A DNA stretch of 46,825 bases from positions 1 through 46,825 of the forward strand of contig MEDY01000234.1 in the NCBI GenBank assembly GCA_001724265.1, read 5' to 3'. The stretch is from Rhizaria sp. SCN 62-66 (lineage: Eukaryota). The notes under the pieces are model-generated. The model saw only the letters and a program-made list of their open reading frames with translations. It did no database searches and had not been told where the DNA came from. This document shows, piece by piece, positions 15,308-45,491 of the stretch. Each line of letters begins with the position of its first letter. Position 1 is the stretch's first letter. Made by a program: the position numbers and the translations under genes.

Positions 15308-15338
<31 letters not shown>

Positions 15339-17550: not shown

Positions 17551-17590
<40 letters not shown>

Positions 17591-22237: not shown

Positions 22238-24634
22238 TTAGTGCGCCGCAGAAGGTCCGCGCAGTGCGGCGGAGGCCTCGTGCATCATCGTGGCCATGGC
22301 GGTGCCGCGGCGCGAGCCCAGCACGGCGGCCACCGAAGCCAGGTCGCTGCCAGGCACGCACGACGTGTCGGTCAGCGCGCCCCCAGCGCCACCGCCAGTG
22401 GAACGCTGGCGCCCGAAGCCGCCGCTGCTGCTCTGGCTGGCCTTAAACGCGGCGGCCGCGGCAGCAGAGGGCGTCGAGGAGGGCGTGGAGCTCGCGCCGT
22501 CGCCACCGCCGCCGCTGCTGACGCCGCCGGAGGTCGTGGGCAGTAAGAACGAGACCGAGACTGACGGCCCCCGCTTGTGCGTGCGCGCCGGCACCTGACG
22601 GTCTGCTGCCGACCCGCCATGCTTAAGCGCGTTCGGGCCGTGGGGGCTCTCGCGGCGCGACGCGGCCGTGCTGCCCGTCGCGCCGCCAGCAGCGCGCGCG
22701 CGGCGGCTCTGAGTCAGCGCGCGCTCGCGGGCGCGCTGGCGGCGTGCGGCTTTGCGGGCCTCATCATCGCCGCCCTCCTTGTCGTCATCGTCGTCGTCCT
22801 CACAGTCGTCGTCGTCGCAGTCGTCGTCGCTCGATGGGCTGTTGTAGTCGGAAACGGAGTCGCCGGAGCCGGGCGCGCCTGACTTGCGCTCACGCTCACG
22901 GCCGCCGCGGCCGCGGTGGGGCTGCGATTTCTGCGGCAGCTGCAGCTGCAGTTGCTGCTGAACATCGCTGCTGCGTTTGCGCTGGTGGTGGCCGTGGTGG
23001 GGCTGATGGTGCCAGTGCGCGGTTTGACTCGCGCTGACGCTGCTGTCTGAGCAGTCGCCGCCGCTGAAGGTGTTTGTGTGGTGGAGGTTGCTGGCGTGCC
23101 GGTTCATCTAATCGTCGCCGCTGTCTCCGTCCAGAATCATGTCCACGATATCGCGATCCTTACTGCCGCCACTGCCGCGGCCACCGCCACCGCCGCCGCC
23201 GCTACTTCTGCTGCCGCCGTTGCCGCCGCCGGCCGTGACTGAGCGGCGGCGGCCCGCGGCGGTGCCTGACCGCGCAGTGAGCAGCAGAGTGGACCCAGCC
23301 GTGGCAGGCGTGACGCGGCGCTGCAGCGCGCCCGAGTGCTGCGCCTGCATCTGCGCGTGTGGCGGCTGCAGGTTGAACATGTTCCCGCCGCCGGCGCCGC
23401 CGTTGCTGCTGCTGCCGGCGCGCGAGAGCGTCGGCGCCGTGTTGCGGTTCGCGCGGACCGACGTGAGGCTCTCTTCGAGGCGGCGGACCTGCGAGCCACC
23501 GACGCCCGAGGCCTTGTAGACGTCGAGACTGCGCGCGAGCGACTTGACCAGGTCCGCGCGCTCCGTCGAGTCAATCTCGCAGTAGACGAACAGGTCGCGG
23601 TGCACGCGGGGGAACTGCTGCAGGAACACGTCCTTGGGCACGCGCGGCCCCGCGGGGGTGCGGCGCACGAGCGAGTCGTAGATGTATTTAAACGCGCAGA
23701 ACACGGCCTCGGCGTGGGACGAGCCCGGGAATTTCTTGCAGCGCTGGCGGTAAGCATAGCGCACGATCTCGACGTCGTTGTACGCGCGGCGCTTGTCGCC
23801 AGCGATGCGGTAGACAATGGCGATGAAGCGCGTGTAGCAATCGACGGCAAGTGCCTTGAGGTCCTGAACGCTGAGCGCGGACCCGTCGGGCTCGTGGCAG
23901 TAGTACGTGAACACGTCCTCGAGGTGGATGGGGTACATGAGCAGCAGCGGATCCGTCCAGTTCTCCGGGAAAGCGTCGAGCGCCGCGATTTGGTCAGGCG
24001 TCAGCGGCACGCTCGCGTCCAGGCCTTCGCTGCTGGCGCCCGCGCTCGCCGCGACCGCGTCGGCAGAGGTGGAGGCCGCGGCGGAGGTGCGGCGGACGGG
24101 CGCGGTGAGGCGGCGGCGTTCGAGCGGCTGCGACGGGTTATAACCAGCGTCGAGCGGGAGACCGAGGATGGAGGCCGCGGTGACGCCCTGAGCGACTGAG
24201 GCCGGGCGCGGGGTCATCTTGCCGTAAAGCAACGCCTCCTCAGGCGTGAGCTGGACCTGCGCAAAGGCAAAAGACATGCCCGCGAGCGGGTCGTCGTCGC
24301 TGTCGATGCCGCCCACACCGCCCATGCTGCCGTGGGAGGGCGGGTGCTCGTCCAAAGAGAACATGTTCCCGCCCGCGCCGCCGCTCGAGGCGCCTGCAGA
24401 GGAGCGAGCGCCCGCGCGGGAGCTCGTGACGCCCGTGGCGCCGGAGCCGGGGGCGCGGGTGTAGCGCGCCGAGAGAAGCATGTTGCGGTTGCGCACGGAC
24501 ATGGTGACGGCAGAGTTGGCGTGAGCGCCGCCGCCTGCGTCCGACTCCGTCAGCTGGGTCGAGCCCTGGCGCACCGGGAGGCGCGAGGAAGGGCCCGGCG
24601 ACGTGTCGGCAACTTGGGACGATCCGCAACCCAT
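22238..24634 (-). CDS. Predicted N-myristoylated/palmitoylated protein with a central helical (degenerate EF-hand-like) domain; one ORF if TAG 23110-23108 is read through
   Basis: Starts MGCGSS (Gly2/Cys3/Ser6). Globular-looking segment LEDVFTYYCHEPDGSALSVQDLKALAVDCYTRF...VPKDVFLQQF. The ORFs 23108..24634 and 22238..23107 abut in one frame (GDSGDD*MNRH) with the same composition. Ends in TAA, followed by AT-rich DNA. Confidence 0.7.
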
Positions 24635-25457
24635 TTGTGAGTGAGAACGCGTAAAAGTCCGGCGATGGGGCTGTTCAACTCGAGAACCTGGGTTGAGCTG
24701 GAGGGGTTAGGGCGACAGATGTCGTATCAGAAGCAAGAGTTAGAGGAAATATGTAACGGTTAGTTATGCGACGTGTGCCTTCTGTGTCGAAACACCAAGA
24801 AGTAATTGAATCAAGGGTCATGTCTGGCGTGAAGTCGAGGAGAATGCAACTTGTGAAGATCGTCTTGGTTGATCGAGGATCATTTCACGCCATTATGGAA
24901 GACCCAAGTCATCGCAATGAAGCTAGAAATTAACAATAATATAGTTAAAAATGTGGCTCATCCCAGAAAATGAATGGCAGTCCAAAGCAACAGTCCCGTG
25001 ATGCGAGTGAACACTCTTTTGGATTCTTGTCACATGCTTCGCTCTGTAACTGCCGGCAATTTTTCGCGAACCGCGCCTCATGATTTTCGATCGAGCTCCT
25101 CTCGACACTCTGCAATGCTTTCACATATCAAGGTGTTTCGCGGCTGGAACGTCCTGTTTGCATTGTCCAATTGAAACCTTCGACGATTCACGCACTTTTT
25201 ATAGCTGTGCTTCTCTTATTGTTTGCTCTGTCGGTTTCTATCTCTCTTTCAGACCCGTTTTAGGGACGCTTTCGCCACTCTCGACTGCTGGCCCACCTGA
25301 GAACCTATCATCGCCTGGACGGGTTGCATAACCGAACCCGTTTTTTGGCATACACGCACTTGACGTCTGTACTGCTCTTTTGCTTACTTTGGCGCAGTTT
25401 TTGTCTTGCCAGCCGTCTCAGCCCCGCCGGCAGCGCCGCCCGCCCGCTCCCCCGAGC

Positions 25458-28400
25458 ATGAGCCTCAGCAGCGCCAGCACCAGGGCGGCCGCCTCGGCTC
25501 GCCCCGGCGCGGCCGCTGCGCGTGCCCCGGGCGCCCATGACGACGACGACGACGCCGAGTTTGCGCTGGACGACTTTGACTTTGACGTGGGGCCGCTGCT
25601 CTCCCCGCAGCCTGTCTCCAAGACAGGCAAGAAGTCCTTCGTACTCCCCAGCGACACGTCCCCGTCATCGGACAACAGCCCTGGCGTTGCTGCTGCTCCT
25701 GCTCCTGCTCCTGCTGCTGCTGCTACGGGCGAGTTGTCGCCGCTGTCCCGCGCCGGACACGACCCCTTTGACCTGGGCGCGCTCGACGACGACTTCAACG
25801 CCCCCGCCAAGCCCCCAACATTCTCCCCCACCAACACCACCACTGCATCATATGTCTCTGCGTCATCGCCCTCGACTAGAGCCGCACCGGCCTCCCCATC
25901 GCCCTCGGCACTGTCGCTGTCGCTGGGGTTGTCCGCGTCGGCCGTCGCCGAGGCCCGCGCGCGCCGCGCCGCGCTGTACGAGCGCCTGGCTCCTGCGTCC
26001 CAGCTGACGCAGAGGCTGCACGCCGCTGAGCTCATGGACCTCGACTTCCTCGCCGTCGTCGCGGAGCAAGACGAGCGCGCGCGTAGACACCACGCCGCGC
26101 TCATTGCGCACTCTGACGCCAAGATCGCCGCCGGAGACGTCACGCCCCCCGCAACGCCCCCCGCAACTCCTCCGCCGACGATGCCGCCTGACGACAACGG
26201 CGACGCAGATGCAGATGACGCAAAGCAGCACCACGCTGGGGAAACCACAGCGGGGAGCGCGCCGGAACACGTGACCCGCGCGCCCCCCCGCGCGTACCAC
26301 GCGGTGACCGTGAGCAGCCTGCTCAACGCGGAGCTGCCGCGCGCCAACACGGGCGCCGGCCGCGCCCGCGCCACCGCGCTCGCCGCCTGCGCCCGCTCTG
26401 CTGCCAGCGCTGCGGCCGACGGGAGCGCTCCCACGAGCGCGAGCGCGACTAGTCCGAGCTCTGCCACCGGCGCCGCCGCCGCCGCTAGCGGCGCTAGAGG
26501 TGCTGGAGGTGCGGGAGCTGACCCTGAGACGGTCGCGCGGGTGGCCGTGGCTGCCACGGCGGCGGCGGCGGCGGTGCGGAAGAAGAGCGCACTTGTCGTG
26601 ACCCGCGAAAACGTCGACAACGACATCTGGACACAGGCACTCTCCCGCCGCCTTAATAACGGCGCCAATGACGCCAATCCCGTCAACCCCGTCACAAGTG
26701 CGACTTCTGCTGCTGCTGCCGACTCAGCGACTGCGGGGGCCCCGCTCCCGCGGCCGCTGGCGTGCCCCGACCTGAAGCCCTTGCTGCCTCTCGCCCTGCG
26801 CTCCCCGCCGCCGCCGCCCGAGACCGCAGGCGCCCCCGCGACGCTGACGCTGAGCTCCGAAGTGCGCTTCCGGTTCAAGCGAGTGGCGCACGGGCGACGC
26901 GTGCGCTGGGCCGACGCGCCTCCGCCCGAGCAGCTGACGATGACCGACGAGGACTGGCAGCCCGCGCTGCGGCGCGCGCGCGAGAGGGCCGAAAAAAACG
27001 CCAAGCGCGCGGAGAAGGCGGCTGCCAAGGAGCAGCGCAAGGCAGCGAAGAAGCTCGCCAAAATCATCGGCACTGTCGGCGGCGTTGTCGGCAAATCTGT
27101 TGGCGATGCCGCGTCTGCTACTGCCACTGCTGCTGCTGTTGCTGCTGCTGCTAGCGCTGCTGAGGCCGCAGAAGGCGATGCTGCTGCGACCGAATCTAAG
27201 GTTGCTGTGGCAGAGACCAGCGCAGAGACTGAGACAGAGACCAAGGCTGATGCCAAGGCGGCGACTCAGGCGGCGACTGCTGCTGTGTCTGCGCCCCTGC
27301 CGGCGCTTGCGTCACCAGTCTCAGCGCCGGTTGTCGCGATCGTGCCCGCCGCCGTCGCCGCCGCTGCCGCGCCCTCTGTCACAGCCACTGCCACTGCCAC
27401 TGCCGCTGCCGCTGCGAGCGCCGCTGCTAGCGCGAGTGCGGATGCGGGTGCGACTAGACCTGCCATGCGCGGTATCGTCCTCCCCGCGCCCCTGAGCACT
27501 GCCACAGCAACGGCGTCGTCCTTGTCGTCCGCCGCGCTCAGAGCCGAGACTGGCCGTGAGGCGTCGGTCCGCGCGGCGCTCGAGAGCGCGCTGGCGGCCG
27601 GGGCGGCCGGGGACAGCTTCGGCCCGCACCGGGACGCCGCGGCGCGCAGAGAGGCCGTGTGCAGAGAGGCCGCCCTCAGAGAAGCCACCCTCAGAGAGGC
27701 AGCGCGGCTCCGCGTCACCGAGCAGCAGCGGCAGCAGATGCGGGAGGCCGGGCGCAGGGCCACCTCGGTCGCGGACCTGCAGCGGCGCGCGGAGGCCGGC
27801 GAAGACGACGAGGACGAGGATGAGGACGGAGATGGAGGGTTCAGACTGCACTTTGCCGGCAACGGCGCGAACAGCAGCAGCGACGACGATAACGGCGACG
27901 GCAATGATATGAAGCGCCCCGTTGCCAGCAAGCAGTCCGCCGCTCTGAACCCCCCCACGAAGCCTCTTGCGGCCGCGTCTGCCACCGCTGCGGCTGCAGC
28001 TGTAGCGCCTCAAACCCCGACGAAGCCCGCCGCTGCCACTGCCACCGCTGCTGCTGTCGCCGCCGCGGCAGCCGCGCCCCGGTCGACCGCCGCCCCGCCA
28101 CAGCTCTCGCTGATGTTCCCCGGCGCCGCCGCCGCTGCCGCCGCCGTGGCCGCTGCCTCCGGCCTCCCCCCACCGCGCGACGACGCGCTCTCCCCGCGCC
28201 GCACCGCCCCCGCTGCCCCCGCAGCCGCCGCTGCGGCTGTGGCGGCGGTGTCGTCGCTCGCGGGCGGAGCTCCGGCTGCGCGCGGGGGCGGGCAATGGCG
28301 CGCGCAGGGGGCCGCGCTGGAGCAGACGTTTGAGCAGCTCTCGCTCGAGATCGCAGCCAGCAAGCCCACCGCCGCCGATAACTGCAACAACAACAGCAAC

Positions 28401-31400
28401 AAGCCCGCCGCTGCCACAGCGACTGCTGTCACGGCCACTACGATGGCTGTGGCGCGCGCTGCCGTTGTCGCTGCGGCGAAGGTGCGGACCACCAACGCCG
28501 TGACGCTGACGCAGATGCAAGACGCGTGGCTCGCGCAGCCCAACAGCCAAGAGCCAGACACCGCGGACGACAGCGACGACGACGACGACGGGGTGACGCG
28601 TGTGCGCATCGTCGTCAGCGACAGTGATGACGACTGCGACGACGACGCGCGCGCCCCCGCGCCTGCGTCCGTCTCCGCTGCCTCTGTAGCTGCCACCTCG
28701 GGGACCGCGCCTGCGATGCCAGCTGCAGTGCCGACGACGACTGTGTCCGGGTTCGCAGTGGCCGGCTCCATCACACCGTCACAGACTCACGCTCCCACTC
28801 AGACGCAGACGCAGACACAGACTCAGCCCCGTATGCTAACGCGCGATACTGCCACAGCCACCCCTACCACAGCTGTCTCGACTGCTGCTGCGACGCGTCG
28901 CTCGCCGCCGCAGCCGCAGGCGCAGTCGCAATCTCGCAGCGCGCCCTCTGCCGCAGCCGCAGCAGCAGCGACTGCAGCCGCTGCGGCGTCAAAGCGCCTC
29001 AGTGGCGGCGGTGGCGGCGGGCTGCCCGGTCGCCCGCAATCCCCGGTGGGGCGCGCGCGCTCCCCGGTGCCGCGGCCTCAGTCGCCCTCCGCCGGCCGCC
29101 GCCTTGCCACCAGTGGCCCACCTGCCACTGCGGCGTCGGCTGCGGCCGTGCGTGGCCGCGTCGCCAGTCCCGGTCGCAGCGGCGCTGGCGGCGGCGGCGG
29201 CGGTGTCAGCGCATGTGGCGGCGGTGTGCGTGTGGGCAGTCCGTCCCGGTTCGCCAGTCCGGCGCGGCAGCGCAGTGCGCGTGCGTCGCGCGTTGCCACC
29301 ATCCACATGGGTTCCGATGACGATGACGACGACGACGACGATGCTGATGATGTCAATGACGGCGGCAATGTTGATGGCAACGGTCAAGAGCAGCCCGTGG
29401 CTGCCGCGGGTCGTGGCGCGAAGACCGGCGCTGGTCCCGGTCCGCGCCCGTCGAGCCCGCGCCCGCTGAGCCCGCGCACCCGCAACTCGGCGTCGGTCAC
29501 CGTGCCCGCTCTGGCGCGCACCGGCAGCAACCGTGCCACGGCCGCAGCCGCAGCCGCAGCCGCTGCTCCTGTCGCCGCTGTCACTGCTTCCGCGCCCGTG
29601 TCTGAGCCCGTGCCCGCGTCGGCCGAAGCTGCAACTGTGAATGTGGCTGCGACGACTGCGACGGCTGCGACGGCTGCGGCCGTTGCGACGGTGTCCACAG
29701 CGAGTGCGGCCGCGGTTCCTGCGGCAGCGCCTCTGGCCTCCCGCGCGGCCGCGACTGTGCGTGACGCCGTGCCCGGCGAGTCCGACAACACTCTCGCCAC
29801 AGCCAGCGAGTCGGGTGTGCAGTCGCAGTCTGTGCTTGACTCGGCGACGCATTCGGGCGCGACTGTGGAGGTCGACACAACGCCGCAGCGCCGAAACGCT
29901 GCTGTTGCTGCTGCTGCTGCTGTCGCGCGCCCCGCCACTGCCACCGCGACGGGCGCCGCCCCCATGTCCCCCCACCAACAGCGCCCGCAGCAGCGGCCGG
30001 CAGCCGCCGTGCCTGCTGCGGGCACTGTGGGCAAGACGACAACACCCGCCCGCTCCTCCACGCAGCGCCTCGCGCGGCCCTCCTCCGCCGCAGCCACAGC
30101 GGCAGCGACAGCTTCGGCCAACGCCACCGCGTTCACAGCGGCGACGGCTGGCGCATCCCCATCCCCGACCGCTGCCACCGCAGGTCCCGCAGGCTCCCCT
30201 AGCGCGCGCAGCCCCACCGGTGCAACGGGCGGCGGCGGCGGCGGCGGTGGTGGGACAACCGTGGACACGCTGAGCGGGACATCTGCGGTGCACCAGGAGT
30301 TCCTCCGCCGGCTCCGCGCGCGCAAGGCCGAGGAGCGCGAACGAGCCCTCGCGCGCGCTGCGGCGGCCGCGGCGGCGGCGGTTGGTGGCGCCGCCACGGA
30401 CGCCAACGCTATGAGTGTGCATCACGTTGGCGGTGATGCGTCGTCGTCGTTTGCGACTATGACAACTGCGACGCCCGTTGCAGCGCACACGACCGCTACT
30501 CTCAGCTCGCCCTCGCACGCACACGCGCATGCGGCGAACAGCAGTATGGCTGCGACGGCGAATGCTGCGAGCGCGATGCCGCTGACGCGCACGCCCGCCG
30601 CGGCCGCCGCCGTCGTGGCCGCGACCGCTGCTGCCGTCGTCCGCGCCGCCGCCGCCGTCGCCGTCGCCGTTAAGGGCCTCGCGCGCGCGGACGCGCTGGT
30701 GCGCGGCGACGCCCGGTTCGAGCCGCTGCGGCTGGCGCGCGCAGCGCAGCTGGCGCAGGACCAGAACCAGCTCGCGCACGCGCAGGCGCAGGCCGCGCAG
30801 GCGCAGGCGCACCTCGCGCAGCTGCAGGCGCAGGCTAGTCTGGTGCAACGCAAGGCCACCGCTGCCGCGACAGCCGCAGCGATGACTGCGGCGGCGGCTA
30901 CAGCGGCGGCGCAGGCGCAGGTGGCTGCGGATCCCAGTCAGCTGCACGGTCAAATGCAGGCGCAACTGCGCTTGGGACGGGCCACACAGGCTGGCGGCGG
31001 CGGGGCCCCCGTGAGCCCACGCGCTGGCAGCGCCAGCGGCAGCTCCAGCGCGAGCTCCAGCGCCAGCAGTAGCGCGAACACGAGCCCCAGCGCCAGCTTC
31101 GGGGGGCCTGGCTCTGAAGCCGACGTCTCGCGCACTGCTGCAACAACAACCACATCCGCCCGCGGCGCCCCCAGTCCCGGGGGTCTCGGTGGCCACGGTG
31201 CGGCGGCGACGGCGGCGGCGCAGCGCAGTGGATCTTTCGGTCCCAAGGGCTGGACGCCGCCAGTCGGCAAAGACGCCGCCGCCGCGCGCGGCGAGCGGAC
31301 CCCCACTGTGACTGCGCGCATGCAGCAGTCTAACCCGGGGGCCGCGAGCCAGAGCCAGAGCCAGAGCCGGGGTGCGGCGGCACGTGACCGCAGCAACAAC

Positions 31401-32623
31401 TCTACAACTGCGACCCCCCTGCGCACCCGCACTCCCACTCGCACCGCCACTGCCACTGCCCCTGCGGCTGCGGCTGCGGCCGTGGCCACCCCGTCTGCTG
31501 TGCAGTCAAGTGCAAACGCTGCGCTCACGAGCCACGCAGGCCGCACGCCGATGCGCCGCCCCGCCACCGCCACCGCAGCCGCCGCAGCTGCCGCTGCCGC
31601 GGCTTCCACAACATCGGTCACGTTTCTTTCGACTGCGACTGCCGCGGCCAGTGCGACCCCCGGGCACTCGCGGCGGCCCTCAGCAGGCGGCGCGGGCTCC
31701 GGGGCCGCCGCCGTCGCCCCCGCCGCTGCGGGCGTCTCTAGCACCCGCAGTCTCGCCCATGGTAACGCGTATACCCACGGTTACGGTCGTGCTGCGGTGG
31801 AGACGCGGCTTAACTTCTCGCCCGACTCCGAGGCCGAGACTGCCGAGACCGCTGAGACTGCCGAAACCGCCGCCGCGCACCGCGCCCGCAGCAGACGCGA
31901 GGAGCAGACCCCCCGTGTCGTCACGGTCACCGCGGCACCGGTAACGCCCAACGCTGCGGTGCGATCGCCAGTGCCAGCGCCAGGAACACCGGGAACGCCG
32001 TCGTCGTCGTCGTCGCGAGATGTGATCGAGTCGCCGCACTCTGCGCTGCGCGGTGCCGCGTGCCCCGCCACGCCCTCGCGTCTCTTCTTCACTCACGCCG
32101 CCCCCAGCAACAACCATGGCGACCATCACGACAACGTCGCTGGTAAAGCGCCGGTCGCGGATGATGCTGATGCCGTGCATGAGCCGCACGCTGCGCACAG
32201 TGGTTATGCGTCTGCGCACAGTGGCGCCGCGCAGTCGTCCGTGAAGAACCCCTCTGCGGCCGCCAGTGACAGAGAGAAACCCCACGCCGGCGCTGTTGAC
32301 GCGCACTGCGCGCTGGCCGCTGTGTCCGGCTCTCTTGTCAGCGGTTTACGCGGTGGGAGCGCTGTCGCCGGTCACAGTGCGTGCGTGTCGGTCGGCGGCG
32401 GCTCACTCGCGGGCTCCTGCGCCGCCCCGCCGTCGCCGCTGCACGTGTCGGTGGACTCTATGCTGCCGGAGGGCGAGGCGCGAATCACTGCGCTCGCGCA
32501 GCGCATGGCGGCGCGGGAAGCGGCGCGCAAGCGCGGCGCGGTGCCGGCGCCCGCCACGGCCACGTCGGCGAATGAGCGCGCCGTCGCGCAGGCGCGCACT
32601 CTCGCGCTCGCGCTCGCACAACA

Positions 32624-32654
<31 letters not shown>

Positions 32655-34610
32655 GCCAAGCAAAAGCAGCTGCAACAGCAACAGCAACAACAGCAGCAAA
32701 AGCAGCAACAACAAGAGATGAAGCAACAGCAGGATAGTGCTGCGGCGACCGCGACTCCTGCGAAGCGTACTGCGACAACGCCATAGCAGCAACGCCCTCA
32801 GTCAGCCGTTGTCGCAACCGCTAACGCCACTGCGACTGGGACCGCTACATTGATTGCGAATGTGACGAGCGCTGCAGCTTCGCCGCAGGCCAAGTAGTCG
32901 CTTGGCCTCCCGTTGTCAATGGCAGAAAACGCGAACCTTGTGGCTGTGCCGTCTCCCGCCCCAGTGTCCGTGACGGTGAACGTTCACGACGACGATGACG
33001 ACGACAATGACGACGATTATGATGAACACGGTGACAACGACGACGCCAAGCCCTCGGCTGCCACTGCCGCCGCCGCTGTCACCGCCGCAGCTTCGAATGC
33101 GGCGCTTGTCTCAACCCCCGGCAAGCCCCCGCGGCCTCAGCCCTCCGCCTCCGCCGCGGCTGCCACTGCTGCTGCTGCTGCAACGGCGACGACGACGACG
33201 ACTACGACTGCGGCTTCACTGGTGCCCCCGCCGGCGCGCGCGTCGCTGATGCCGCGGCAGTCCCCCGTCTTTATCCCCGCGGCGTCGCCGTTCTTGCCCT
33301 CGACGCCCACCGCCGCCGCCTCCGCAGCAGCTGCCTCTGCCGCAGCCGCCGCGGCCGCAGGCGGGGACTCGGCGCCCCACACGCCTCTGACAGGCGCGAT
33401 GGCGGGCGCGTCGCCGGGACACATGGCGCTGGATCACAGCGGAACACACGGTCCTCACGGTACACGTGGGACCCATGGGGGCGCAGGTGACGCGAGGGCG
33501 CAGCAGGCGCGCGCGCGGTTGTTGTCGGCCACTGCGGCCGCGACCGCCGCCGCCGTCGCCGCTGCCGCCGCCACCTGGAACGCCACCACATTGTCGCCCG
33601 CGAACGGCGGTGTCGGTGGCTCTGGCGCTTCAAACGTGAGCTCAGTAGCCCCAGGCTCGCCCGCCGCGGCGGCCTCTGCGGCCGCCGCGGCGGCCGCGGC
33701 GCTGCTGGCCCCGCCGCCGCCGCCGACGCCGACGCGCGCGCTCGTCGTCAGCACGCCCAAGGGCGTCGTCGCCGGCGGCGGAACCACGACGTCCTTCACG
33801 TTTGCGTACATCCCGCGCCGCAACCTCGCGCCGCCGCTCTCCATCAACGGCAGCAGCGGTGGCGGTGGCAGTAGCGGAGCTAAGCGGTCTCCGCGCCTCA
33901 AGCCGCAGCAAGCCAACGGCGCAGGCACGAGTACCGCCGCGGGTGGCACGGGCACTGGTGCCGCCGCGGGTTCCTCGGGTTCCGGTACACGTGGTGGCGG
34001 GGGGCAGACGCGCGCTGCAGGGGACCGTTCCCCGCGCGCGTCGCCGCGTGGGTCGCCTCGTGGGTCCCCGCGGGGCTCGCCCCGTGACAGATCAAGCAGT
34101 AGCGCGCATAGCAACAACAACAACAACAGCAGCAACAACAGCAACATGAGGCCGTCGCCGTCGATGCTGTGTGGACACGCACAGCACGCGCCGGGGCCGC
34201 TGTCCCTGGGCGACGGCTCCGCGGCCTCAACCCCACGGTCCACGCCCACCGCCACGGGCAACGGCAGCGGCTACAGCTACGGCTATAGCGGTGGCTCTGA
34301 GAGCGACTCCTCAGCCGGCGGCGGCGGCATGGGCGGCGGCGGCGGCGGCGGCGGCGGGGGTGGCGGGGCGGCTGTGGTGTTGGCGGACCCCGTGGCCACG
34401 CTGCCGCCCGCGCTGGCCGCGAGTCTGGCATCCGCGCGCTGGGCGGGCAACGTGCCCGTGGCCATGACCGCGGGCGCGCGCGCGCGGGCCACGGGCACCG
34501 CGGTTACCGGCGGGTCCCCCACGGCCTCGCCCTGGGCCGGCGCAAACGCGGGCAACGACGATAGCGCGAGCGAGCACGAGACGGGGGGGGAGTTCTCGCT
34601 CGGCGACTGA
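25458..34610 (+). CDS. Giant (~3050 codon) intrinsically disordered Ala/Ser/Thr/Pro-rich protein with short coiled-coil blocks; in-frame TAGs at 32784-32786 and 32895-32897
   Basis: ORFs 25380..32786 and 32913..34610 share a frame. The gap reads TTP*QQRPQSAVVATANATATGTATLIANVTSAAASPQAK*SLGLPLSMAEN with coding-like composition. First ATG is at 25458. Ends in TGA, where GC drops. Confidence 0.7.
32619..32731 (+). repeat. CAG/CAA polyglutamine tracts
   Basis: Read directly. Similar tracts lie at about 6374-6535 and 15303-15337. Confidence 0.85.
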
Positions 34611-35444: not shown

Positions 35445-37499
35445 ATGAGCGTGATTAAAGCGGGCACCAAGGTGCTCCCCCCGCACGTCTTCGCCAATTC
35501 CTGGCCGATCACAGACCAGCTCATGCTTTGCGAGTGCGTCGTGCGCCTCCTCACCCACGCCTCCTCCGTCTCCGGCGGCGCCCCCGCCACGGCGGTTGAC
35601 TGGGCCCTCATCGTCGCCACCGTCGCCGCCCGCTCCGGCTCCGCCGCGCGCGCCGCCGAGACCCCCGCGTCGTGCCAGGAGCAGTACGCCACGCTTGCCA
35701 CGGCCCTCGCGCGCTCTATCCCGGGCGCGCCGTTCCCCGACGCGCTGTCCCTCGCAGCGCGCGCCGTGCTCTACCTCAAGGACATCCGCATGAAGGACCT
35801 CGCGCGCGACTTAGTCTCGTGCAAGGACAACATGCGTGTGTTTCGCGCCGACGTTGACTTCGCCGACGGCCGCGCGCTTGATCCAGCCCTGCTGCAGCCC
35901 GCGGCCTCGGCCCTGCCCGCGCCGCCACCCATGCAGGTTCAGTTCATCTTCCCCCACGCCACTCCGTCCGCGGTTCCTCTCCCGGTCCCCAACGTCCCCG
36001 CCACGCCCGGCAGCGCCGGCAGCGCCGGCGCCGGAGCCGCGGCTGCTGCGGCGGCGGCGGCGGCGCAGATGTTCGCCGTTCTCTCCCCCGCAGACACGCG
36101 CGCGCTGCTGCCCCACGTGGAAGGACTTGACCCCGCAACGGGGCTGCCCCGCGGCGCCGCATCGCTGGACGAGGTCGTGGGGCTGTCGCTGTCGACGACG
36201 CACGTGCCCGTGGTGGTACGCGTGACCGCGCGCACCGCCTCGCGCCCTCTCCTCGCGCAGATTGTCGCCGAGGTCCGCGCCCACCCCAAGGCGGGCCCCT
36301 TCCAGCGGCCCGTGCAGTTGGAAGAAGCGCCGCGGTATCTCGAGGTGATCCGCCGGCCCATGGACCTGGGCACCGTGGCCGCGCGCGTCGAGAGCGGGGA
36401 GATCGCGCACGCATTCGCGCTGTTCGAGCTGCTGTGCACGATCTGCACCAACGCCTACACGTACAACGCCAAGAACGCAGACATCTGGCTCATGGCCAAA
36501 GAGGTCGACGTCTTCATCTCGCAACTTTTCCAGAACGCGTTCCCCGAGCTGGCCGACATCTTCCCGCCCTCGACGGCCGACTCGCGCCGCGGGCTCAAGC
36601 GCCCGAAGCCGCAGCGGCCCGGAGCGGTGCTGCCGCCTGTGCCTGTTCCCGGGCACGCCGAGGAGCCCGCCGATGCGGCGGCTGTGGCGGCGCTGAACAA
36701 GCACTCCGGCAACCAGTCCAGCACTGTCACTCCCGCGGGCGCTGGCGCTGGCGGCTACGCTGCTCCCGCCGCCGCCGCTGCTGCTGGTGTTGTTGGTGGT
36801 GTTGCGCCTGCTGCTGCCGCTGCTTCTATGGTTAAGATGGAGGATGCTAACAACGCTGCTGTTGCTGCTGCCTCTGCGGTGCCCATGGTGAAGGCCGAGC
36901 CTGCTGCCGCTGCTGCTGCCTCTGAGGCCGCTGCGCCTGCGTCCCTGCTTGCCTCCGCCCCCTCACTCCTTTCCTCCTCGTCATCCTCGTCCTCGTCGTC
37001 GCTGCCTGTGACCGGCTCTGTCAGCTCGACTGGGTCTTTGACTGGGACCTCGGGGTCTGGCTCCGGGTCGCTGCCGACGGTGCCGGAGGACGGCGTGCCG
37101 GTGCAGCTGGCGCAACCCCAGCCCTACTCGGCTAGCGCGCTCGCCTCCATGCAGCCGGGCCAGAGCCAGAGTCAGAGCGGGGGGCAAGGCCAGGGGATCC
37201 CGCCCCTCAGCCGCGGCTCCAGCGCCGCCGCTGGTGCCACGGGCACGCCGCAGTCGCGCCCGCGGCGGCCGCGGTCTACCTCCCCGGCCCCGCAGCAGAT
37301 GGCTCTCGACGGGAGCAATGGCGGCGCCGAGGGCCGCGCGTCGCCGGACCCGCTACCGCAGCCGCAAGTGAAGCGGCCGGCCCGCACCCCGCGCAGCGCC
37401 GCCGCCGCCGCGGGGGGCGCGGGCGCTGCGGCGACGGCGGCGGCGGAGGAGGACGAGCTGGCGGCGGGCAAGCGCACAACTCGCGCCAGTCGCGGTTGA
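35445..37499 (+). CDS. BRD8-like bromodomain protein (N-terminal SANT/Myb-like region plus bromodomain)
   Basis: Bromodomain HPKAGPFQRPVQLEEAPRYLEVIRRPMDLGTV...ICTNAYTYNAKNADIWLMA (~36250-36545) with the conserved Asn. N-terminal WPITDQLMLCECV...DWALI...PASCQEQYATL resembles the BRD8 N-terminus. Ends in TGA. Confidence 0.8.
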   Translation: MSVIKAGTKVLPPHVFANSWPITDQLMLCECVVRLLTHASSVSGGAPATAVDWALIVATVAARSGSAARAAETPASCQEQYATLATALARSIPGAPFPDALSLAARAVLYLKDIRMKDLARDLVSCKDNMRVFRADVDFADGRALDPALLQPAASALPAPPPMQVQFIFPHATPSAVPLPVPNVPATPGSAGSAGAGAAAAAAAAAAQMFAVLSPADTRALLPHVEGLDPATGLPRGAASLDEVVGLSLSTTHVPVVVRVTARTASRPLLAQIVAEVRAHPKAGPFQRPVQLEEAPRYLEVIRRPMDLGTVAARVESGEIAHAFALFELLCTICTNAYTYNAKNADIWLMAKEVDVFISQLFQNAFPELADIFPPSTADSRRGLKRPKPQRPGAVLPPVPVPGHAEEPADAAAVAALNKHSGNQSSTVTPAGAGAGGYAAPAAAAAAGVVGGVAPAAAAASMVKMEDANNAAVAAASAVPMVKAEPAAAAAASEAAAPASLLASAPSLLSSSSSSSSSSLPVTGSVSSTGSLTGTSGSGSGSLPTVPEDGVPVQLAQPQPYSASALASMQPGQSQSQSGGQGQGIPPLSRGSSAAAGATGTPQSRPRRPRSTSPAPQQMALDGSNGGAEGRASPDPLPQPQVKRPARTPRSAAAAAGGAGAAATAAAEEDELAAGKRTTRASRG

Positions 37500-37505
37500 G
37501 AGTCC

Positions 37506-37530
37506 ACTTGACTTGACTTGACTTGACTTA
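37506..37530 (+). repeat. (ACTTG)4+ pentanucleotide microsatellite just after the bromodomain gene stop
   Basis: ACTTGACTTGACTTGACTTGACTTA read directly. Confidence 0.9.
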
Positions 37531-38459
37531 AGCTCGTACATGACTTGAGCAAGATACTAGGACTACCTCTTTTTTACGATGTCAACATCTCATCAAGCGT
37601 GTTAAGTGTAGTCAGCTGCGCTCTGCTTGTATGTGTGTCTGGTAGTCTTGTTGTTGTTTGTTGCCTCTCTTTGTTGAATCGCTCTTTCTGATGTTTATAT
37701 TTACCACACGCTACCGTTGTTACGGGGGCCAGTTTCAGCTTTTCACGCTCGATATCACACGGCTAATAGGCGCTGCGCCGCGCAGCAGACTTGCTGCGCA
37801 TGGCTCGAAAGAAATGCGATTTATTGTGCAACATTTGTTTGGTTAGTTGAAAATACTGTATTGCTCTTCGAATCAGTTTCCAAACTCGTGTAATAAACTC
37901 GTGCAATACTGCTCAGTGTTTTCCGAGTAAGCTGAACTCGACCACAAACGAGTTCTTAAACCACTGATACAACATACTCAATGATTTCACACTGAAGTAT
38001 ATAAGCACAAGCAAGTGAAGATGCAATGTAAACATGATTTTACCTGGATGTATATCATACATTTGCTGTATGGCTCTCAAACATGAAGTTATCATCTAAA
38101 AACGTCGTACTCGACCACAGGTACTGTGAGGAAATCGATCAATAGGAGAAAGTTAGCGCTCCACTAGAACAAACACATTAGAAATAGGAGGCCGTGTGTC
38201 CAGCTAAACTGATTATATCTAAAAAATGCATCGGTTTCAAAGTTAGATGCATGACAATTGACAAATGTGAGTGGTGACCATGGAGCTGGTTGTTTTGACG
38301 TGACCGTGAGCGAAAACAGTTCTCCAATCGTTGTGAAAACATCATGCAGATCTTCTTATCCCGTCGTCACGTTGTAAATACGTAAGGCTCATGTGAACAT
38401 GCACTACTATTTTTTTCATTTTCTTTAATAATATCTTCCTCTCTCTCGATCTAGACGCT

Positions 38460-39632
38460 ATGGGCCATTATCATTTGGGCCTGTAGGGCACACTCGGCCT
38501 GCTCTACATCTGCTTCTCTTTCCTCGTCATCTGCGCTCTCATCGTTCCTCTGACGCCGCAAACGAAGCGCAGTATCGGACCTCCAATTACTGAGATTGCC
38601 CGCATTCTGGCATACGCGACCATTGTTCCTTTCCTCATCACTCTGAGTGGTAAGTTTCGCTCTCGTCTCCATTCCGCTTCGCTCACGCGCTATGTTCCTC
38701 CACTCTGCTCTCACACTACACGCTCTAATATCTATTTGCTTCCCGCGTAGCTGTGTACTCGATGGATAGTGCGGCCAAGGACTACGACCTGCACCGCCTT
38801 ACATCGCACATGTTCGACAAAATCGCATACCGGGTACGCTTAAAAGTAAATCTCAGTGACTATCTCTTCATATCTTCCCTCTTGTCTAGTCACTTCGCGC
38901 GTGTCGTACCCAGTCTATGCAGTCCCCCAGTTTGGTCTCAGTGTAGCGCTCAGTAACGCCAACCCAGGTCTACGCGTCCAGCATCTATGCAGCCTCTTGG
39001 TAATGTCTCAGTGCTGCGTTTGCGGCGAAGTTTGCTTCGTCCTGGTTGTCTCAGTCGCTGTGCTTTGTAACCATGTAACGACCGTCAGCCTGAGCAGCTT
39101 TGCAGTGTGACTGACATCATGACAGTCTCGAGTGACGGCATCCGTGGAACACGCTAGATGCACAGACGTCTGAAGGTTTTTACCGCTGCATACTTTTACA
39201 CATGTCCCACACCAGATCTCATACTGTACTATACGCTCCTGCAAGTAGATATTACTATGCCCTTAAACTCGCTTAGACATCTTGCTCTGTCCTCACTCGT
39301 GTTCACCTTACTCCTACTGATCTCCTGGAACGCGTGCACATATTAATCACACAACAACACAACAGGAGTTGCGCGCGCAGCGTGACGCGCTCGTGGGCGT
39401 GTTCGGCCTCATGCTGGCCCCCGTCCTCTTCACCCTCCGTGCGCAGTTCATCGGAGGCAGCCTTTTCCCCGACGAGGACGCCGCCACGCCCGCCGCGCGC
39501 GCCGCAGCGGTCGCCGCGGCAAACAGGGGCGCAGCCGGTGGCAGCAACGGCGCGAGCAGCAGCAGCAGCAGCAGCAACGGGCAGCCGATTGTCGGCGGCA
39601 AGAGGATGTCTGTCCCGCAAAGCGCAAAGTAA
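38460..39632 (+). CDS. BAP31/BAP29 (Yet)-like 3-TM ER membrane protein; exons 38460-38649, 38751-38833, 39366-39632; probable in-frame TAG at 38484-38486
   Basis: Spliced product MGHYHLGL*GTLGLLYICFSFLVICALIVPL...ILAYATIVPFLITLSAVYSM...FDKIAYR|ELRAQRDALVGVFGLMLAPVLFTLR mirrors BAP31 (MSLQW...LLLCIPF ... KLFRAQRNLYIAGFSLLL). Introns GTAAGT..TAG and GTACGC..CAG keep the frame. Ends in TAA. Most of the gene is missed by the ORF track. Confidence 0.7.
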
Positions 39633-39905
39633 ATGCGCTTCTATTTCAAAAAGAAATTTTCAATCAATGAATCACATGCACTTTAATACATAGCCAACCC
39701 TGTTATTTGTCTTATAATGACTTAACTGTGCAATAAACCTTAAAATGATTTTTGGCCAAAGCGAGGCTCGAATTGGCGCCCCTGTCAAGTTGAATTTCGA
39801 AACTGACACAGTGATCTAACGAGACCGTCATTGGCGTTGCTAACTTAACTCTGGAAGAAAACTCACATGAATGACCTTGTATTTTTAATTATGTCCTCTC
39901 CACAG

Positions 39906-42900
39906 ATGGACTTTTAGCGCTACGTCTCAGCGCGCCAGCGCCTGGAGGAGTTCATCCACGCGCTCAACGTGGTCGAGGCGGCGCAGTCCGCCGCGGGCCC
40001 CCAGCAGCCCCACCTGGCTGACGAGGACTCTGACGCGCTGTGGCACCTGCAGGCGAGCGACAGCTCCGGCGGCTACGGCCCCAGCGGCGCGGTGCCGCTG
40101 CTGTCGGCCGAGGAGCACGACGAGGCGCTGCGGCAGCGGATTCGGGCGATGATCCGCGATGGCGCGCTCACTGTCACGTTCCAGCACGAGCCGCTGCCGC
40201 TGTCGGAGCAGCTGCACCGCGAGCGCACGTACCTCGCGCGCACCATCTTCAACGCAGTAGGCGAGCCGCAGGTGCCGCGGTACCCGGGCGAGGAAGGGCT
40301 CTTCGTGCCCCCGCGGACCGAGATGCCCGACTGGGACATGTACAAGCTCTACTCGCGTCTCTCCCGCGAGGACCCGCGGCGCACGTTCTTCTTTGACGAG
40401 AACGGGCACATGATCCACGCCCCCGAGCAGCGCGGCGACCCCCTCTCCCGCGTGTTCGAGCTGCGGGACCCGTTCCTCCCCCCGGACCCGCGTCTCGCGG
40501 TCGTGGTCAACGCGCCCCAGCAGCGCGCGCAATCACGGCAATGGCTGCCGCTGGTGCTCAACGTCGCGCGCGTGCGCGTCGAGGACCACCCGCTGTTCAC
40601 GCTGGAGGACCGGCTCTGCGTCGCACTGCGGCGCGAGGTAGAGCGGTGGCACCGCCGCCGAGCTGTCGACGTCACGCAGCACTACACATCGCGCATCGCG
40701 GCGCTGCGGGCACGGGTCGAGGGGCAGGTGCAGCGCCTACAAGCCATCCTCGCCCGCCTCGCCGCCCCGCGCCCGCCCTCCGAAAATCACAACAACAGCC
40801 ATAACAGCGGCGGGGGGGACTCTGGGGAAGGGGAGACGTTGCAGGCGCTTAAGGCCGTTTGCGCGAGCGCTGTGCAGGAGGTGCTTTCGGGGCTGGCGCG
40901 GCTCAAGGAGGCGCGTGTGGCGCGCGACGAGGAGTGGGCGGCTGAGCAGCGGCACTTCGCGGATATCTACGCGGCGTGGCAGCGCGTCAAGGCGTTTCGC
41001 GAGCAAACAGGCGCTGTCTATGCCAGCATGGGCTACAACCTCGCCACCACCCTCACCAACAACACGATGAACACGAATACACCGACACCGACGGGAGAGG
41101 GTGGGAGCATCGTGAGCCCGCGCGAGGGCGTCGCCTCGGCCTCTGCCGCGGCCCAAGGCGCCGCGCCGGCCGCCTATGTCGGTTTCCCTCTGTCGCTCAA
41201 AGTCCGCCGTACGGCCACGGACCACGCGGCCGAGCTTGCCGCGTGGCGCAACGACGAGCTGGCCGAGCTGGACGAGGCCCGCCGCGCGCGCGAGCTGCTC
41301 AACGTGCTCGAAGACCTCGAAGAAGAAGCCAATAACAGCAGCGCCGACGCTCAGTACGGCGGTAAGAAGCCGAGTTTGGAGCAGTTAATGTTTTCCGACG
41401 GCGGTGCGGCGCTGCAGGCGCAGCTGGCGGGGCTGGACGAGGACCAGCGCGCGCGGCAGCTTGCCGTCTGGGAGGCTGAAGTCCGCCGCGAACGGTTCGC
41501 CGCCAGGGAGAAGCAGCGGCGGCGGGCGTTTGACGCGACTGGCGAGTTCGAGCGCGTCCGCGCGCGCATGTTGGCCTCGCGCCGGCCGCCCGGACGCCCG
41601 CTGCTGGAGCCGCTGCTGGATCTGAGCACGCCCGTGACGCCCGAGGCCTCGTGCCCGCCCGCCGAGGTCAAGCGGCGGCAGCGGATCGGGTCCACGCTGC
41701 TGTACGTGACGCTCCACGTCAACGGCCGCCCCGTGGCCGCGGGCGACAAGGCTCCCCTCCGCTTCCCGCAGTGGACGGCCGACGTCAACTTCGCGGCGCG
41801 GCTCCAACTCACGGCGGCGCCGCGGTCCGTGGTGTTTGCTCTGCGCCAGGACGCGCTGTTCACGGACCCCGTGCTGGCCGAGTTCTTCCTGCCCGTGCCC
41901 GACCTCGCAGCGCAGCCGCACCTGCGCGAGGTCACCGCCGCCGGCCGCCGCTTTACCGCGCCGCTGCCCGCGCCCGACGCGCCCGCTGACCGCTTCCACG
42001 AGGTGTCAGCCGTGTGCTCGGCGTTCTGGAACGTCCCGGCGCACGTGCTGAAGGATCCTGACGTCCTGCGCGCGTTTGCTGCGACCAACGACGTCTCGCT
42101 CCCGGCGCCGACCTCGCACCGACGCGGCGGCGGCGCGGCGGCGGCGGCGCACCAAAGGGACCTGGCGAGCATCGACCCGAACGACCCGCGCAACGCGCTG
42201 CTGGCCGATCTCGCCCGCCGCGGGGATCCCCTGCGCGCCGCGGCCGTCGCCACCGCCGCGGACTCCAATGGCGGGAGCAGCGGCGGCGGCTTCTCGGGAT
42301 GGGAAGTGTGTCCTGACTTACTGCTTGTCAACGAGGAGTACTACGTGCCGTCGGCGCGCAAGCGGCTGCTGCGCGCGCGGCGCGACGCATTGTTTCTCCG
42401 CGAGCCCGTGCCTCTGCGCGAGGACCAGTTCTCCGAGGAAGCCTTGGCCACACTGGCGCGCTTGGCCGAGACCGAGACCGGCGACGGCGACGGCGACGGC
42501 TCCGTCGGGGCGCACGGCCGCGGCGAGCCCGGCTTCTCGGCCGTCACGGCCATGGCCAAGCGCGTGCAGGATCTCACGGGCCCCGGCTTAACTTACGACG
42601 GAACCGGTGAGTCAGGGGTTCCCGGCGGTCCCGTGCCCGCGTCCGTGGCGGACAACGCGGCGCGCATGCCCTCAGCGGCGGCACTGGCGGCGCTGCGACA
42701 GTCTCTCGCCGGCGACGCCGCCACCGGGCCCGTCGACCTGCACGCGCTGGAGCGGCCTCTGGTGCTGCCGTCGGCGGACGCGGCGGCCGCAGAGGCGCAC
42801 CGCCGCCGCGAGGAGCGCTACTACGGCGTCGCGCTGCCCAACAGCAGTGGCAATAGCGGCAACAATATCGGCGCTGCGGTGACCGTGGGCGGCGGTCGCG

Positions 42901-45491
42901 CTGCAGAGAACGGCGCGCTTGTGCTGGCCGGTAGTGCGGCGTCGGGGACGGCGATGGGACTGGTTGATGGGCGCACGGGCGACCGTGACCTCGCGACTGC
43001 CCTGGGGCTAGTCGGCGCGCGCAACGAGCTTGCCGTGACCGACGTGAGCGACGTCGTGTACGAGCAAGTGAACCCTGACCTGGTGATGACGTCCACGTTC
43101 ATGCGCGACCTGTTCCGCCCCGTGCGGCCGCTATTTGTGTACCGCGACGACGTGCGCGCGGTGACGAACCCGCGGTCGTGTGCGCTCGTCTGCCAAGTGC
43201 TCCGCGCCAGCAACGTCCCACTGCGGACGTCCGCATCCGCGTCCTCGTCCTCCTCGGGGCCGGCGCTGGTGCCGGGACAGACGCGTGAGGCCCGTGAGGG
43301 CGCACGCGCGGCCGCGCTCAACTGCGTCGTACAGGTGTCGTTCCAGGAGAGCGTGCGCAAGACGAGCCCGGCCGCGGGGCCACACCCGCGGTGGCAGGAA
43401 GTGCTGCATTTGCCGTTCACGACGCCGAACGACAGCTACGACGCCGCGTCGCTCCTGCAGCTGCAGTCGCCCGTGCTCGTTGCGCTCTATGACCAGGTGA
43501 CCGTGAGCAACGAGGTCATCGATGCGCGGTTCCAGCGCACTCAGCTCGCCAGCGTCGATTTGCGCTATCTGGGCAGTGTTGAGATCCCGTTCAGCACCAT
43601 CTTCGCCGCGTCCACCATCGAGGGCGCCTTCGAGGTCCGGTTTTTTGCAATTAACAAAGAACAAGCTCTTCTTTTTATTCATGCTAAGTGTTAATTTTTT
43701 CACTCACATTTATATCTTCTCGTATTTTCTCGCTTTGTTGTTTCATCGTTTTCTCAGGTCGAGGTGCCGCTGTTGCACCTGGGCTACCAGACGCCAAACC
43801 CGGCAGTGCCGACGGTCGTCCACCTGTACCTGACTCTGGACCCGCTGCTGATGCCGCCGCGCTCCGACCCCTACGCGGCTCTGCTGGCGGCACCCGCCGC
43901 GGCGACCACGTCGACGGACTCGTCCGCGTCGGCGGGTCTGGTGGACACGCTTCCGACCGCGGCGACTGCTGGCGGCGGGCTGAACCCGGCGTTCCGCAGG
44001 GTAATCGAGTGGGCTCAGCGCGCGTCGGCCGCGGCTGGGCGCGAGGTGCGGCCACTGGTTGGCGACATCAACGGCGAGCCACAACTCGTGACGCGCTTCC
44101 TCACCGCGCAGGCCCCACCCGCGGCGTGCCAGGGCCACCCGCGCGTGTTTGCTCGGTTCGTCTCGCTCGTGCCGTTCGTCGAGGACTACCGTCTGCCGCT
44201 GGGCGGGGACGCGCCCGCCGCCGCGCTGCCCGACGTCTGGTGCACCTCTGCGCAGTTCCTCCGGCTCTCGGGCGGCGACTGGGAATAGCACGCGGTGTTG
44301 CTGTGCAACTACTTCTACTGGTGGGAGGCGCAGACGCGCGAGGCGGACCGGCTGCAGGGTATTGTGTGGGAGACGTTCCTCGCCGTCGGCACCGCTGTGC
44401 CTGAGGGAGACACGTGCTACTGCCTCCGCATCAAGAAAGTCGTACGTCCTCAATCTATCTGTTTCTCCGATAATTTCATTCACTTTTTTCTTTTTAACGC
44501 TCGACACTTACATGCGCGTTTCTGATCTCATTTTTGATAGCATGCTTTTTTATGTTGCTTTTATTTTTGTTTGTTTTTGTTTTTAGAATGGCGCTGTCAA
44601 GGAGCAGACGCTGTACAACGCCGTGACGCACCGCGCCTACGCCACCTCATACGACTCGGCTCTCTTGCCGCTGAAGGAGATCTCGATGCTGGCGTGCCGC
44701 GACAACGTCTACGCGAACCTGCAGGAGTCAGCCGCGCCGGTGGACATGAGCTTCGACGTGACTGACGCGCGCGCGTGGGCTCCGCTCTTCACAGCCAAGT
44801 TCGACGTCTTCGCGTACAACCGGCTCTACGGCGCCGCGTACACGACCCTGCAGACGGACTTGCGGCTGTCGTACGAGCCGGACCCGCGGCCCGCGGCGGT
44901 GCTGCTGGCGGCCGCGGCGGCGCGCTGGGGCGAGTTCGGCCGCCGGCTCGAGCGCATCCTGCAACGTGCGTTCGAATCCTGGCGTGTGCTGCCCACCGAG
45001 TGGAACTACGGCGCCGCGAAGTTAGGCCGCGAAGTGCTGGCGCAGCTCGAGGCCGTTGAGGTTGGTGAGGCAGACGATCTGCGGGACCGTGGGCCTGTGG
45101 CGAAGCTCAAGGCCGCGTTTGCATCGGCGCACGGGTTTCCGCTGCATTTCTCCTGCGCTGCAGACGACGAGGTATGTCGTGTGATTAATGTAATCATCAA
45201 CGATCGACGTATTTCAACGTATTTCTGATATGAATTATTTGCTTTGTTTATTGTATCTCACTGTAACTTCACTTTTGTTCACTGTTTTGTTTGTTTTGCA
45301 CGGTTTAGACTCTATTGGAGCCGTCGACGAAGAATCCCATCGTGCGCAGGCTGCGGACAACCCTGCTGCATCTGAACGAGGAGCCCAACACGGCCTTTGT
45401 TGTTGCCGTACACACACAGCCCTACACGAGCAAGTTCGCCTCTGTCTGGGTGTTTGTTGCCGCGCTCTCCTCCGCGCCCATTGACGCCTAA
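39906..45491 (+). CDS. CC2D2A: CC2D2A/MKS6 ciliary transition-zone protein (coiled coil, C2 domains, C-terminal CEP76-like transglutaminase-like domain); exons 39906-43634, 43758-44441, 44587-45171, 45309-45491; in-frame TAGs at 39915-39917 and 44286-44288
   Basis: Motifs EDHPLFTLEDRL, IDPNDPRNA, C2 (VLRASNVPLR...VQVSFQ...GPHPRWQEVLHLPF), ARFVSLVPF...DVWCTSAQFL...GDWE*HAVLLCNYF, PEGDTCYCL, DNVYANLQ, GFPLHF and C-terminal FVVAVHTQPYTSKFASVWVFVAAL match CC2D2A. Three frame-preserving GT-AG introns. Ends in TAA. The 5' end may include an upstream exon (CACAG acceptor-like site at 39901-39905). Confidence 0.92.

Follow-up and report, generated by a model that had tools for sequence, protein, structure and literature searches.

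The stretch of DNA considered here, referred to as the window, is contig MEDY01000234.1 from Rhizaria sp. SCN 62-66 at its full length of 46,825 nucleotides (nt). The window is eukaryotic, with exons of about 70% guanine-plus-cytosine (GC) and intergenic DNA of 42-50% GC. At 39906-45491 on the forward strand it carries a gene that is, judged from its predicted protein, a CC2D2A-like (MKS6) gene of the ciliary transition-zone family. The spliced model of this gene has four exons and 1726 codons, runs without a frameshift to a TAA, and is interrupted internally only by two TAG codons, at codons 4 and 1420. We considered what these in-frame TAGs might mean, and we lean towards a reading in which UAG stands for glutamate (Glu) and UAA and UGA remain stops. 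The features of the gene are as follows.

39906-43634, forward strand: exon 1, starting with the ATG at 39906 and encoding the CC2D2A N-terminal C2 domain (PF15625, 5e-16)
39915-39917, forward strand: in-frame TAG at codon 4 (M-D-F-TAG-R-Y)
43635-43757, forward strand: intron 1, 123 nt, 32% GC, GT..AG, phase 0, with the donor GTCCGG at 43635 directly after exonic GAG
43758-44441, forward strand: exon 2, carrying the second TAG and the first part of the CEP76 peptidase-like domain (PF24656, 5e-08)
44286-44288, forward strand: in-frame TAG at codon 1420, in the place of the near-invariant Glu of the GDWEEHAxLLCNYF motif
44442-44586, forward strand: intron 2, 145 nt, 32% GC, GTACGT..TTTTAG
44587-45171, forward strand: exon 3, remainder of the peptidase-like domain (PF24656, 9.7e-11)
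45172-45308, forward strand: intron 3, 137 nt, 32% GC, GTATGT..TTTAG; at the relative's corresponding junction ADD[D/E] is followed by TLLEP
45309-45491, forward strand: exon 4, ending ...SSAPIDA, then the TAA stop at 45489-45491

The matches to PF15625 and to PF24656 in exons 2 and 3 all exceed the curated cut-offs, which is the domain combination of CC2D2A. The gene resembles the CC2D2A/MKS6 family in both domains, in the GDWEEHAxLLCNYF motif and in its conserved C-terminus, and it departs from the family in its two TAG codons and in alanine- and glycine-rich inserts of the kind typical of this genome. Its closest relative, represented by proteins P0002 and P0003 and contigs L002 and L004, shares 63% identity with it overall and about 80% around the TAG at 44286; P0002 is 63% identical to exon 1. 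The C-terminus aligns with P0003 (...TPAIDA, with a TGA stop) and with a further homologue, P0004 (...SSRAID). P0003 comprises the C-terminal 452 residues and maps without gaps or introns to L004 (L004:547-1902), whereas L002, from the same relative, retains its introns. L004 therefore looks like a spliced transcript, that is, a contig derived from complementary DNA (cDNA), and as such it supports the relative's exon junctions directly. The junction across intron 2, between IKKV and NG, is backed by both L004 and P0003. An in-frame TAA at 43692 falls within intron 1. A sequence search of the PDB with the relative's C-terminal protein returned no match.

Around codon 1420 the window reads GGC GAC TGG GAA TAG CAC GCG GTG TTG CTG TGC AAC TAC TTC (44274-44315, forward strand). 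Within the exon frame, no other stop occurs for 197 codons before the TAG or for 78 after it, and PF24656 matches on both of its flanks. Since the alignment to homologues is gapless at the TAG (GDWE-X-HAVLLCNYF against GDWEEHA[IV]LLCNYF), there is no room for an intron at this point. An earlier note on this DNA had claimed an in-frame TAG inside the CC2D2A motif (GDWE-TAG-HAVLLCNYF, 44272-44318), with coding sequence in the same frame on both sides and no space for an intron. The letters match and place the TAG at 44286-44288, and the flanking claims hold as well; the peptide that the note named as spanning this codon is LSGGDWE[X]HAVLLCNYFYWWEAQTR.

The residue found at this position in homologues is almost uniform. 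A search with exon 2, in which the TAG was represented as X, against 1.84 billion cluster representatives gave 442 matches at E<=1e-3. The best 150 of these were re-aligned together with P0002, making 151 proteins, and all but P0010 and P0065 cover the TAG column. Among the 149 covering homologues, 147 have Glu, one has alanine and one has valine, the valine stemming from a short, truncated alignment; glutamine (Gln), leucine (Leu), tryptophan and tyrosine do not occur in the column at all. Where the window has GAC TGG GAA TAG CAC, the closest relative has GAC TGG GAG GAA CAC, so that a GAA codon stands opposite the TAG. Thus, the earlier proposals that UAG means Glu here, that the position is acidic in CC2D2A, and that leucine, tryptophan and tyrosine fit it poorly are supported by the orthologue column, and Gln, whose frequent presence in that column would have weakened the case for Glu, is absent from it.

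The TAG at codon 4 offers a second comparison, since the relative begins ATG GAC TTT GAG (MDFERY) and the window ATG GAC TTT TAG. Together, the two informative sites (44286 and 39915), read against homologous sequences, suggest Glu. An N-terminal FER motif in P0005 had been aligned to this site by eye; MAFFT did not reproduce that alignment and it was dropped.

Gln is the commonest outcome when stop codons are reassigned, and a UAG that is sense might accordingly mean Gln, or be decoded ambiguously, with Glu as at most one of its meanings. Such a reading could draw on the fact that CAG (337) and GAG (335) are about equally frequent as codons one step away from TAG, on the number of informative sites, which is just two, and on another in-frame TAG in the window, at 32784, which stands directly ahead of QQ in a Gln-rich tract. 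The column at 44286, with no Gln and 147 Glu among 149 homologues, and the Glu codons of the relative at both informative sites point the other way, and we regard Gln or ambiguous decoding as unlikely.

Assembled contigs from three other studies contain the TAG at 44286 with no differences over the 216-1310 bases covered (X3 record 5, 43341-44650; X4 record 15, 43849-44650; X5 record 22, 44137-44352). The TAG at codon 4 is likewise unchanged in X3 record 1 and X4 record 9, and a contig from a further metagenome assembly, L003, is 100% identical to the window over 5016 bases (37354-42369), this TAG included. The comparison used contigs from four of the 15 listed runs (X3, X4, X5 and X7), with the small-share runs X6 and X8-X15 unused. 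The assemblies that carry the same TAG come from several studies and date from 2015 to 2025. Because contigs of other studies carry the identical codon, the TAG at 44286 is not an assembly slip, and the TAGs are a feature of the organism. The same codons have left their mark on public resources, where open reading frames (ORFs) predicted by standard gene callers are broken at TAGs: P0010 begins just past 44286, P0153 stops at 23110, and P0001 is another entry split in this way. The proteome of this organism is therefore mis-annotated in public metagenome resources.

A sequencing or assembly error at 44286, or a transcript in which the UAG is edited to GAG, is extremely improbable in view of the three independent assemblies with no differences and the identity of L003 through codon 4. 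No RNA contig lies over the site, that of run X7 ending at 44236, and this leaves some space for editing, although we know of no U-to-G editing of nuclear mRNA.

The sequence downstream of the TAG has evolved as a protein-coding sequence under constraint. Over the 303 codons from the TAG at 44286 to the C-terminus, the window gene and that of the relative share 81% amino-acid identity, both proteins end in ...IDA, and the ratio of nonsynonymous to synonymous substitution rates (dN/dS) is 0.10; for the 148 exon-2 codons ahead of the TAG it is 0.19, with dS at about 0.9-1.4. In the contigs of other runs we find 39 base differences, all within 35 CC2D2A codons, of which 26 are synonymous, although part of this variation stems from short and divergent contigs that may belong to related strains. 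The earlier argument against a pseudogene, namely that the downstream exons are conserved to the C-terminus, agrees with the low dN/dS, the predominantly synonymous variants and the intact TAA end. We are moderately confident that the CC2D2A gene is full-length and functional, with the TAG at 44286 coding for Glu.

These data bear directly on a simpler account, in which the code is standard and each TAG marks a nonsense mutation in a gene that is decaying or dispensable, whether a pseudogene or a null allele. A GAG codon becomes TAG by a single G-to-T change, and in these GC-rich genes TAG makes up 67% of the possible one-step nonsense outcomes. A gene released from selection is nevertheless hard to reconcile with a dN/dS of 0.10 downstream of the TAG, with synonymous changes at 26 of 35 variant codons, and with 1726 codons that contain no frameshift and no other kind of stop. 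The same TAG has moreover persisted in assemblies from 2015 to 2025, and three genes within 47 kb are hit, by TAG only. We consider decay under the standard code very unlikely.

At a single site, a GAG-to-TAG nonsense mutation would give a picture identical to that of a reassigned codon, and so the pattern across the window has to carry the argument. We took a census of nine gene models or long ORFs, comprising 10,463 codons. Three of them contain in-frame TAGs: the CC2D2A gene (39906-45491), an ORF of 822 codons and a low-complexity ORF of 3092 codons. The remaining six members are a thioesterase/START protein, an MFS transporter, a bromodomain protein, a Sel1-repeat protein, a SPOUT-type methyltransferase and one more ORF, and the remaining six intervals are 4970-9256, 14847-20756, 35445-37499, 11588-12580, 13307-13978 and 3712-4449. 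The TAG-containing features outside CC2D2A are as follows.

22238-24706, reverse strand: ORF of 822 codons
23108-23110, reverse strand: in-frame TAG of the 822-codon ORF
25332-34610, forward strand: low-complexity ORF of 3092 codons
32784-32786, forward strand: first in-frame TAG of the 3092-codon ORF
32895-32897, forward strand: second in-frame TAG of the same ORF, 111 nt from the first

In all, the nine models contain five in-frame TAGs, or 0.48 per 1000 codons, and no in-frame TAA or TGA, and these TAGs are spread over three different genes in 47 kb. The terminators show the opposite distribution, with six TAA, three TGA and no TAG. If the TAGs are counted as Glu codons, they make up five of 395 (about 1%), next to 335 GAG and 55 GAA. 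The six TAA and three TGA terminators occur despite third-codon positions of about 75-87% GC; a preference for TAA is unusual in such genes and fits avoidance of TAG as a stop.

A conserved and otherwise intact coding context surrounds three of the five TAGs, those at 44286, 39915 and 23110. For the last of these, the relative's protein P0154 keeps the motifs RRQRARQRAL and HRRGPSVS within one ORF, and their counterparts in the window lie downstream of the TAG, which is thus internal to the coding sequence. This TAG falls within an insertion and therefore carries no information on the amino acid.

The TAGs at 32784 and 32895 are the sole interruptions of an ORF rich in alanine, threonine, Gln and glycine, with long poly-Gln and poly-alanine runs, in which no Pfam domain was found. 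A homologue search around its TAGs returned nothing, not even the self-match, the candidates having been flooded with low-complexity matches. Past the TAG at 32784 the ORF continues for another 570 codons, and the next 132 nt have 61% GC, compared with 42-50% in intergenic DNA; the open frame and this composition count in favour of one continuous gene.

A scan of every TAG with at least 50 open codons on each side returned 85 sites. Beyond four of the TAGs described above, these were judged to lie out of frame or on the antisense strand of known genes, or in sequence of non-coding appearance. The TAG at 39915, with fewer than 50 codons upstream, falls outside the scan. Three further TAGs that seem to be in frame, at 1065 (GTACGT...AAAATAG followed by GAGGCG), 44584 and 45306, are 3' splice sites.

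The rarity of in-frame TAG, at 0.48 per 1000 codons, also invites a reading in which UAG remains mainly a stop and has a dual meaning, being read through in a leaky or context-dependent manner by near-cognate tRNAs. A C after the stop favours leaky termination, and C follows the TAG at three of the five sites; the one at 32784 might itself end a gene. Yet with stops at codons 4 and 1420 of the same essential cilium gene, hardly any full-length protein would be made, and insertion of an amino acid by a near-cognate tRNA would not restore an invariant Glu. None of the nine gene models ends in TAG. Nor is any of the five TAGs followed by an unusual RNA structure (z from -1.20 to +0.69), which argues against readthrough driven by structure. 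Readthrough of this kind therefore seems unlikely.

Several observations weigh against UAG as a Glu codon. Two amino-acid-informative sites do not suffice to call a code, and that at codon 4 is weakly conserved: Glu is present in the two alignable homologues, the relative and P0013, Mataza has asparagine, and the remaining N-termini are unalignable there. Given that random one-step nonsense predicts 67% TAG, five TAGs of five has P = 0.13; with GAG at 24% of TAG's one-step neighbours, two Glu sites of two has P about 0.06. The absence of TAG among nine terminators is a small sample. The TAG at 32784, adjoining QQ in its Gln-rich stretch, may be a real terminator or may fit Gln. ARAGORN detects no tRNA with anticodon CUA in the window, Rfam has no match there, and the window does not contain eRF1. 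Finally, no spliced RNA contig from X5 or X7 covers any of the TAGs, and the polyA RNA run X7 stops at 44236, short of codon 1420.

Counts alone, then, do not prove a change of code. The case is made by the counts in combination with intact frames, purifying selection downstream of the TAG, persistence across samples and a near-invariant Glu column. On this combined evidence it is likely that UAG is translated in this organism. That it means Glu, with UAA and UGA retained as stops, is a narrower claim, which we favour with more reserve.

How might UAG be read as Glu in such a system? A duplicated tRNA-Glu whose anticodon had changed from CUC to CUA, through a C36-to-A substitution, would read UAG and would not read UAA, which fits the continued use of TAA as a terminator. 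Weakened recognition of UAG by the release factor eRF1 would act alongside this tRNA. We infer this mechanism from other lineages that read UAG as Glu, namely the ciliate PL0344 (PMC10553269) and Blastocrithidia (PMC12153298), and from an argument made for another rhizarian, exLh, that a change confined to UAG needs the anticodon CUA (PMC5304391). In the window, ARAGORN proposes a 95-nt 'tRNA-???' with a two-base anticodon at 26288-26382 on the reverse strand; it lies inside the low-complexity ORF, coincides with no Rfam tRNA and is in all likelihood spurious.

Nuclear codes seldom deviate from the standard one, and where they do, UAA and UAG are nearly always reassigned jointly; a handful of lineages have split the two (PMC11687900). 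As described there, UAG is reassigned to Glu only where UAA is also Glu, as in peritrich ciliates and Blastocrithidia, or where UAA is lysine, as in the ciliate Oligohymenophorea sp. PL0344. The reassignments of UAG alone that it describes are to Leu in exLh and in phyllopharyngean metagenome-assembled genomes, to Gln in Iotanema, Hartmannula, Trochilia and Protocruzia, and to serine in Scotinosphaera (PMC11687900).

Each of the codes in which UAG means Glu differs from the pattern in the window. In the peritrich code (NCBI table 30), UAA and UAG are both Glu and UGA is the only stop (PMC11687900). The window shares the Glu reading of UAG; in contrast to table 30, no in-frame TAA occurs in its 10,463 codons, and TAA ends six of the nine models, among them CC2D2A at its conserved C-terminus. 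The Blastocrithidia code (NCBI table 31) has UAR as Glu, UGA as tryptophan and UAA also as a stop (PMC12153298). It provides a precedent for UAG as Glu outside ciliates, described there together with cognate tRNAs and eRF1 changes (PMC12153298). It belongs, however, to a GC-poor trypanosomatid genome in which all three stops are reassigned, whereas the window has no in-frame TGA or TAA, exons of about 70% GC and spliceosomal introns, at variance with table 31.

In PL0344, UAG is Glu, UAA is lysine and UGA is the stop, and all ten of its tRNA(CUA) genes are most similar to tRNA-Glu (PMC10553269). The likeness is that UAG means Glu and carries a meaning distinct from that of UAA, and its tRNA-Glu-like tRNA(CUA) corresponds to the mechanism proposed here. 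PL0344 is, however, a ciliate with UGA as its sole stop and with UAA read as lysine; the window has GC-rich exons and introns of 123-145 nt, and its TAA ends six of nine models and is never in frame. Since TAA and TGA are never in frame in the window and do terminate, the peritrich, Blastocrithidia and PL0344 codes all fail to describe it.

In Rhizaria sp. exLh (Sainouroidea), UAG is Leu, UAA and UGA are stops, and 384 UAG codons were counted in 71 genes (PMC5304391). As in our reading of the window, UAG alone has changed its meaning and UAA still terminates, and the two organisms may belong to the same supergroup, as a tree of CC2D2A proteins described below suggests. The amino acid differs, however, because the column at 44286 is one of Glu, with no Leu among 149 homologues, and so does the frequency of the codon, which is common in exLh and rare here (five in 10,463 codons).

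A full-text literature search, whose reach did not extend to supplements or subscription journals, found no report of UAG alone meaning Glu. We put it at about even chances that the window represents the first nuclear code in which UAG alone has passed to Glu and termination is left to UAA and UGA; its bearer would be an uncultured, rhizarian-like protist of engineered wastewater systems. If it does, it would be a second case of UAG as Glu outside ciliates and, provided that the placement holds, a second independent capture of UAG in Rhizaria, by an amino acid other than that of exLh. Such a code would have arisen in GC-rich genes, to which the AT-pressure explanations of other reassignments are not obviously applicable. 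With UAG still very rare in these GC-rich genes, codon-capture and ambiguous-intermediate models could be tested against each other here.

The organism, an uncultured eukaryote with GC-rich exons and AT-rich introns, is probably a rhizarian, as judged from its CC2D2A sequence. In a FastTree phylogeny of 55 CC2D2A proteins, built from their C-terminal 620 residues, the window protein, the relative and P0004 fall in a 13-row clade with SH-like support of 97. Mataza (Cercozoa) and Reticulomyxa (Foraminifera), the only two sequences in the tree that are named as rhizarian, belong to it as well. The tree is built from a single gene and is a lead on the lineage and not a placement. The stretch is present in contigs of runs labelled as bioreactor, wastewater and activated-sludge metagenomes (the four runs named above), and scans of genome contigs revealed no mis-binned copy of it.

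The relative itself has a CC2D2A gene with no internal TAG and with a TGA end, as pieced together from four short contigs. On its contig L001 (L001:975-1000), a TAG stands in the CC2D2A frame four codons ahead of the start ATG.

Over introns 2 and 3, the RNA-labelled runs X5 and X7 yielded only unspliced contigs: an X7 contig (45117-45378) spans intron 3 unspliced, and X5, which is labelled RNA and is probably DNA, spans intron 2 unspliced. Introns in the window are uniform, at 123-159 nt (909-1067, 43635-43757, 44442-44586 and 45172-45308), with GTACGT, GTATGT or GTCCGG as the donor and a run of mostly T ahead of the AG, and the contrast in GC content between exons and introns is visible by eye. 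Four of the five long genes in 4970-37499, like CC2D2A, lie on the forward strand, the 822-codon gene being on the reverse strand, and they are separated by AT-richer spacers of 0.6-2.4 kb. The proteins encoded in the window contain many alanine, glycine and serine inserts.

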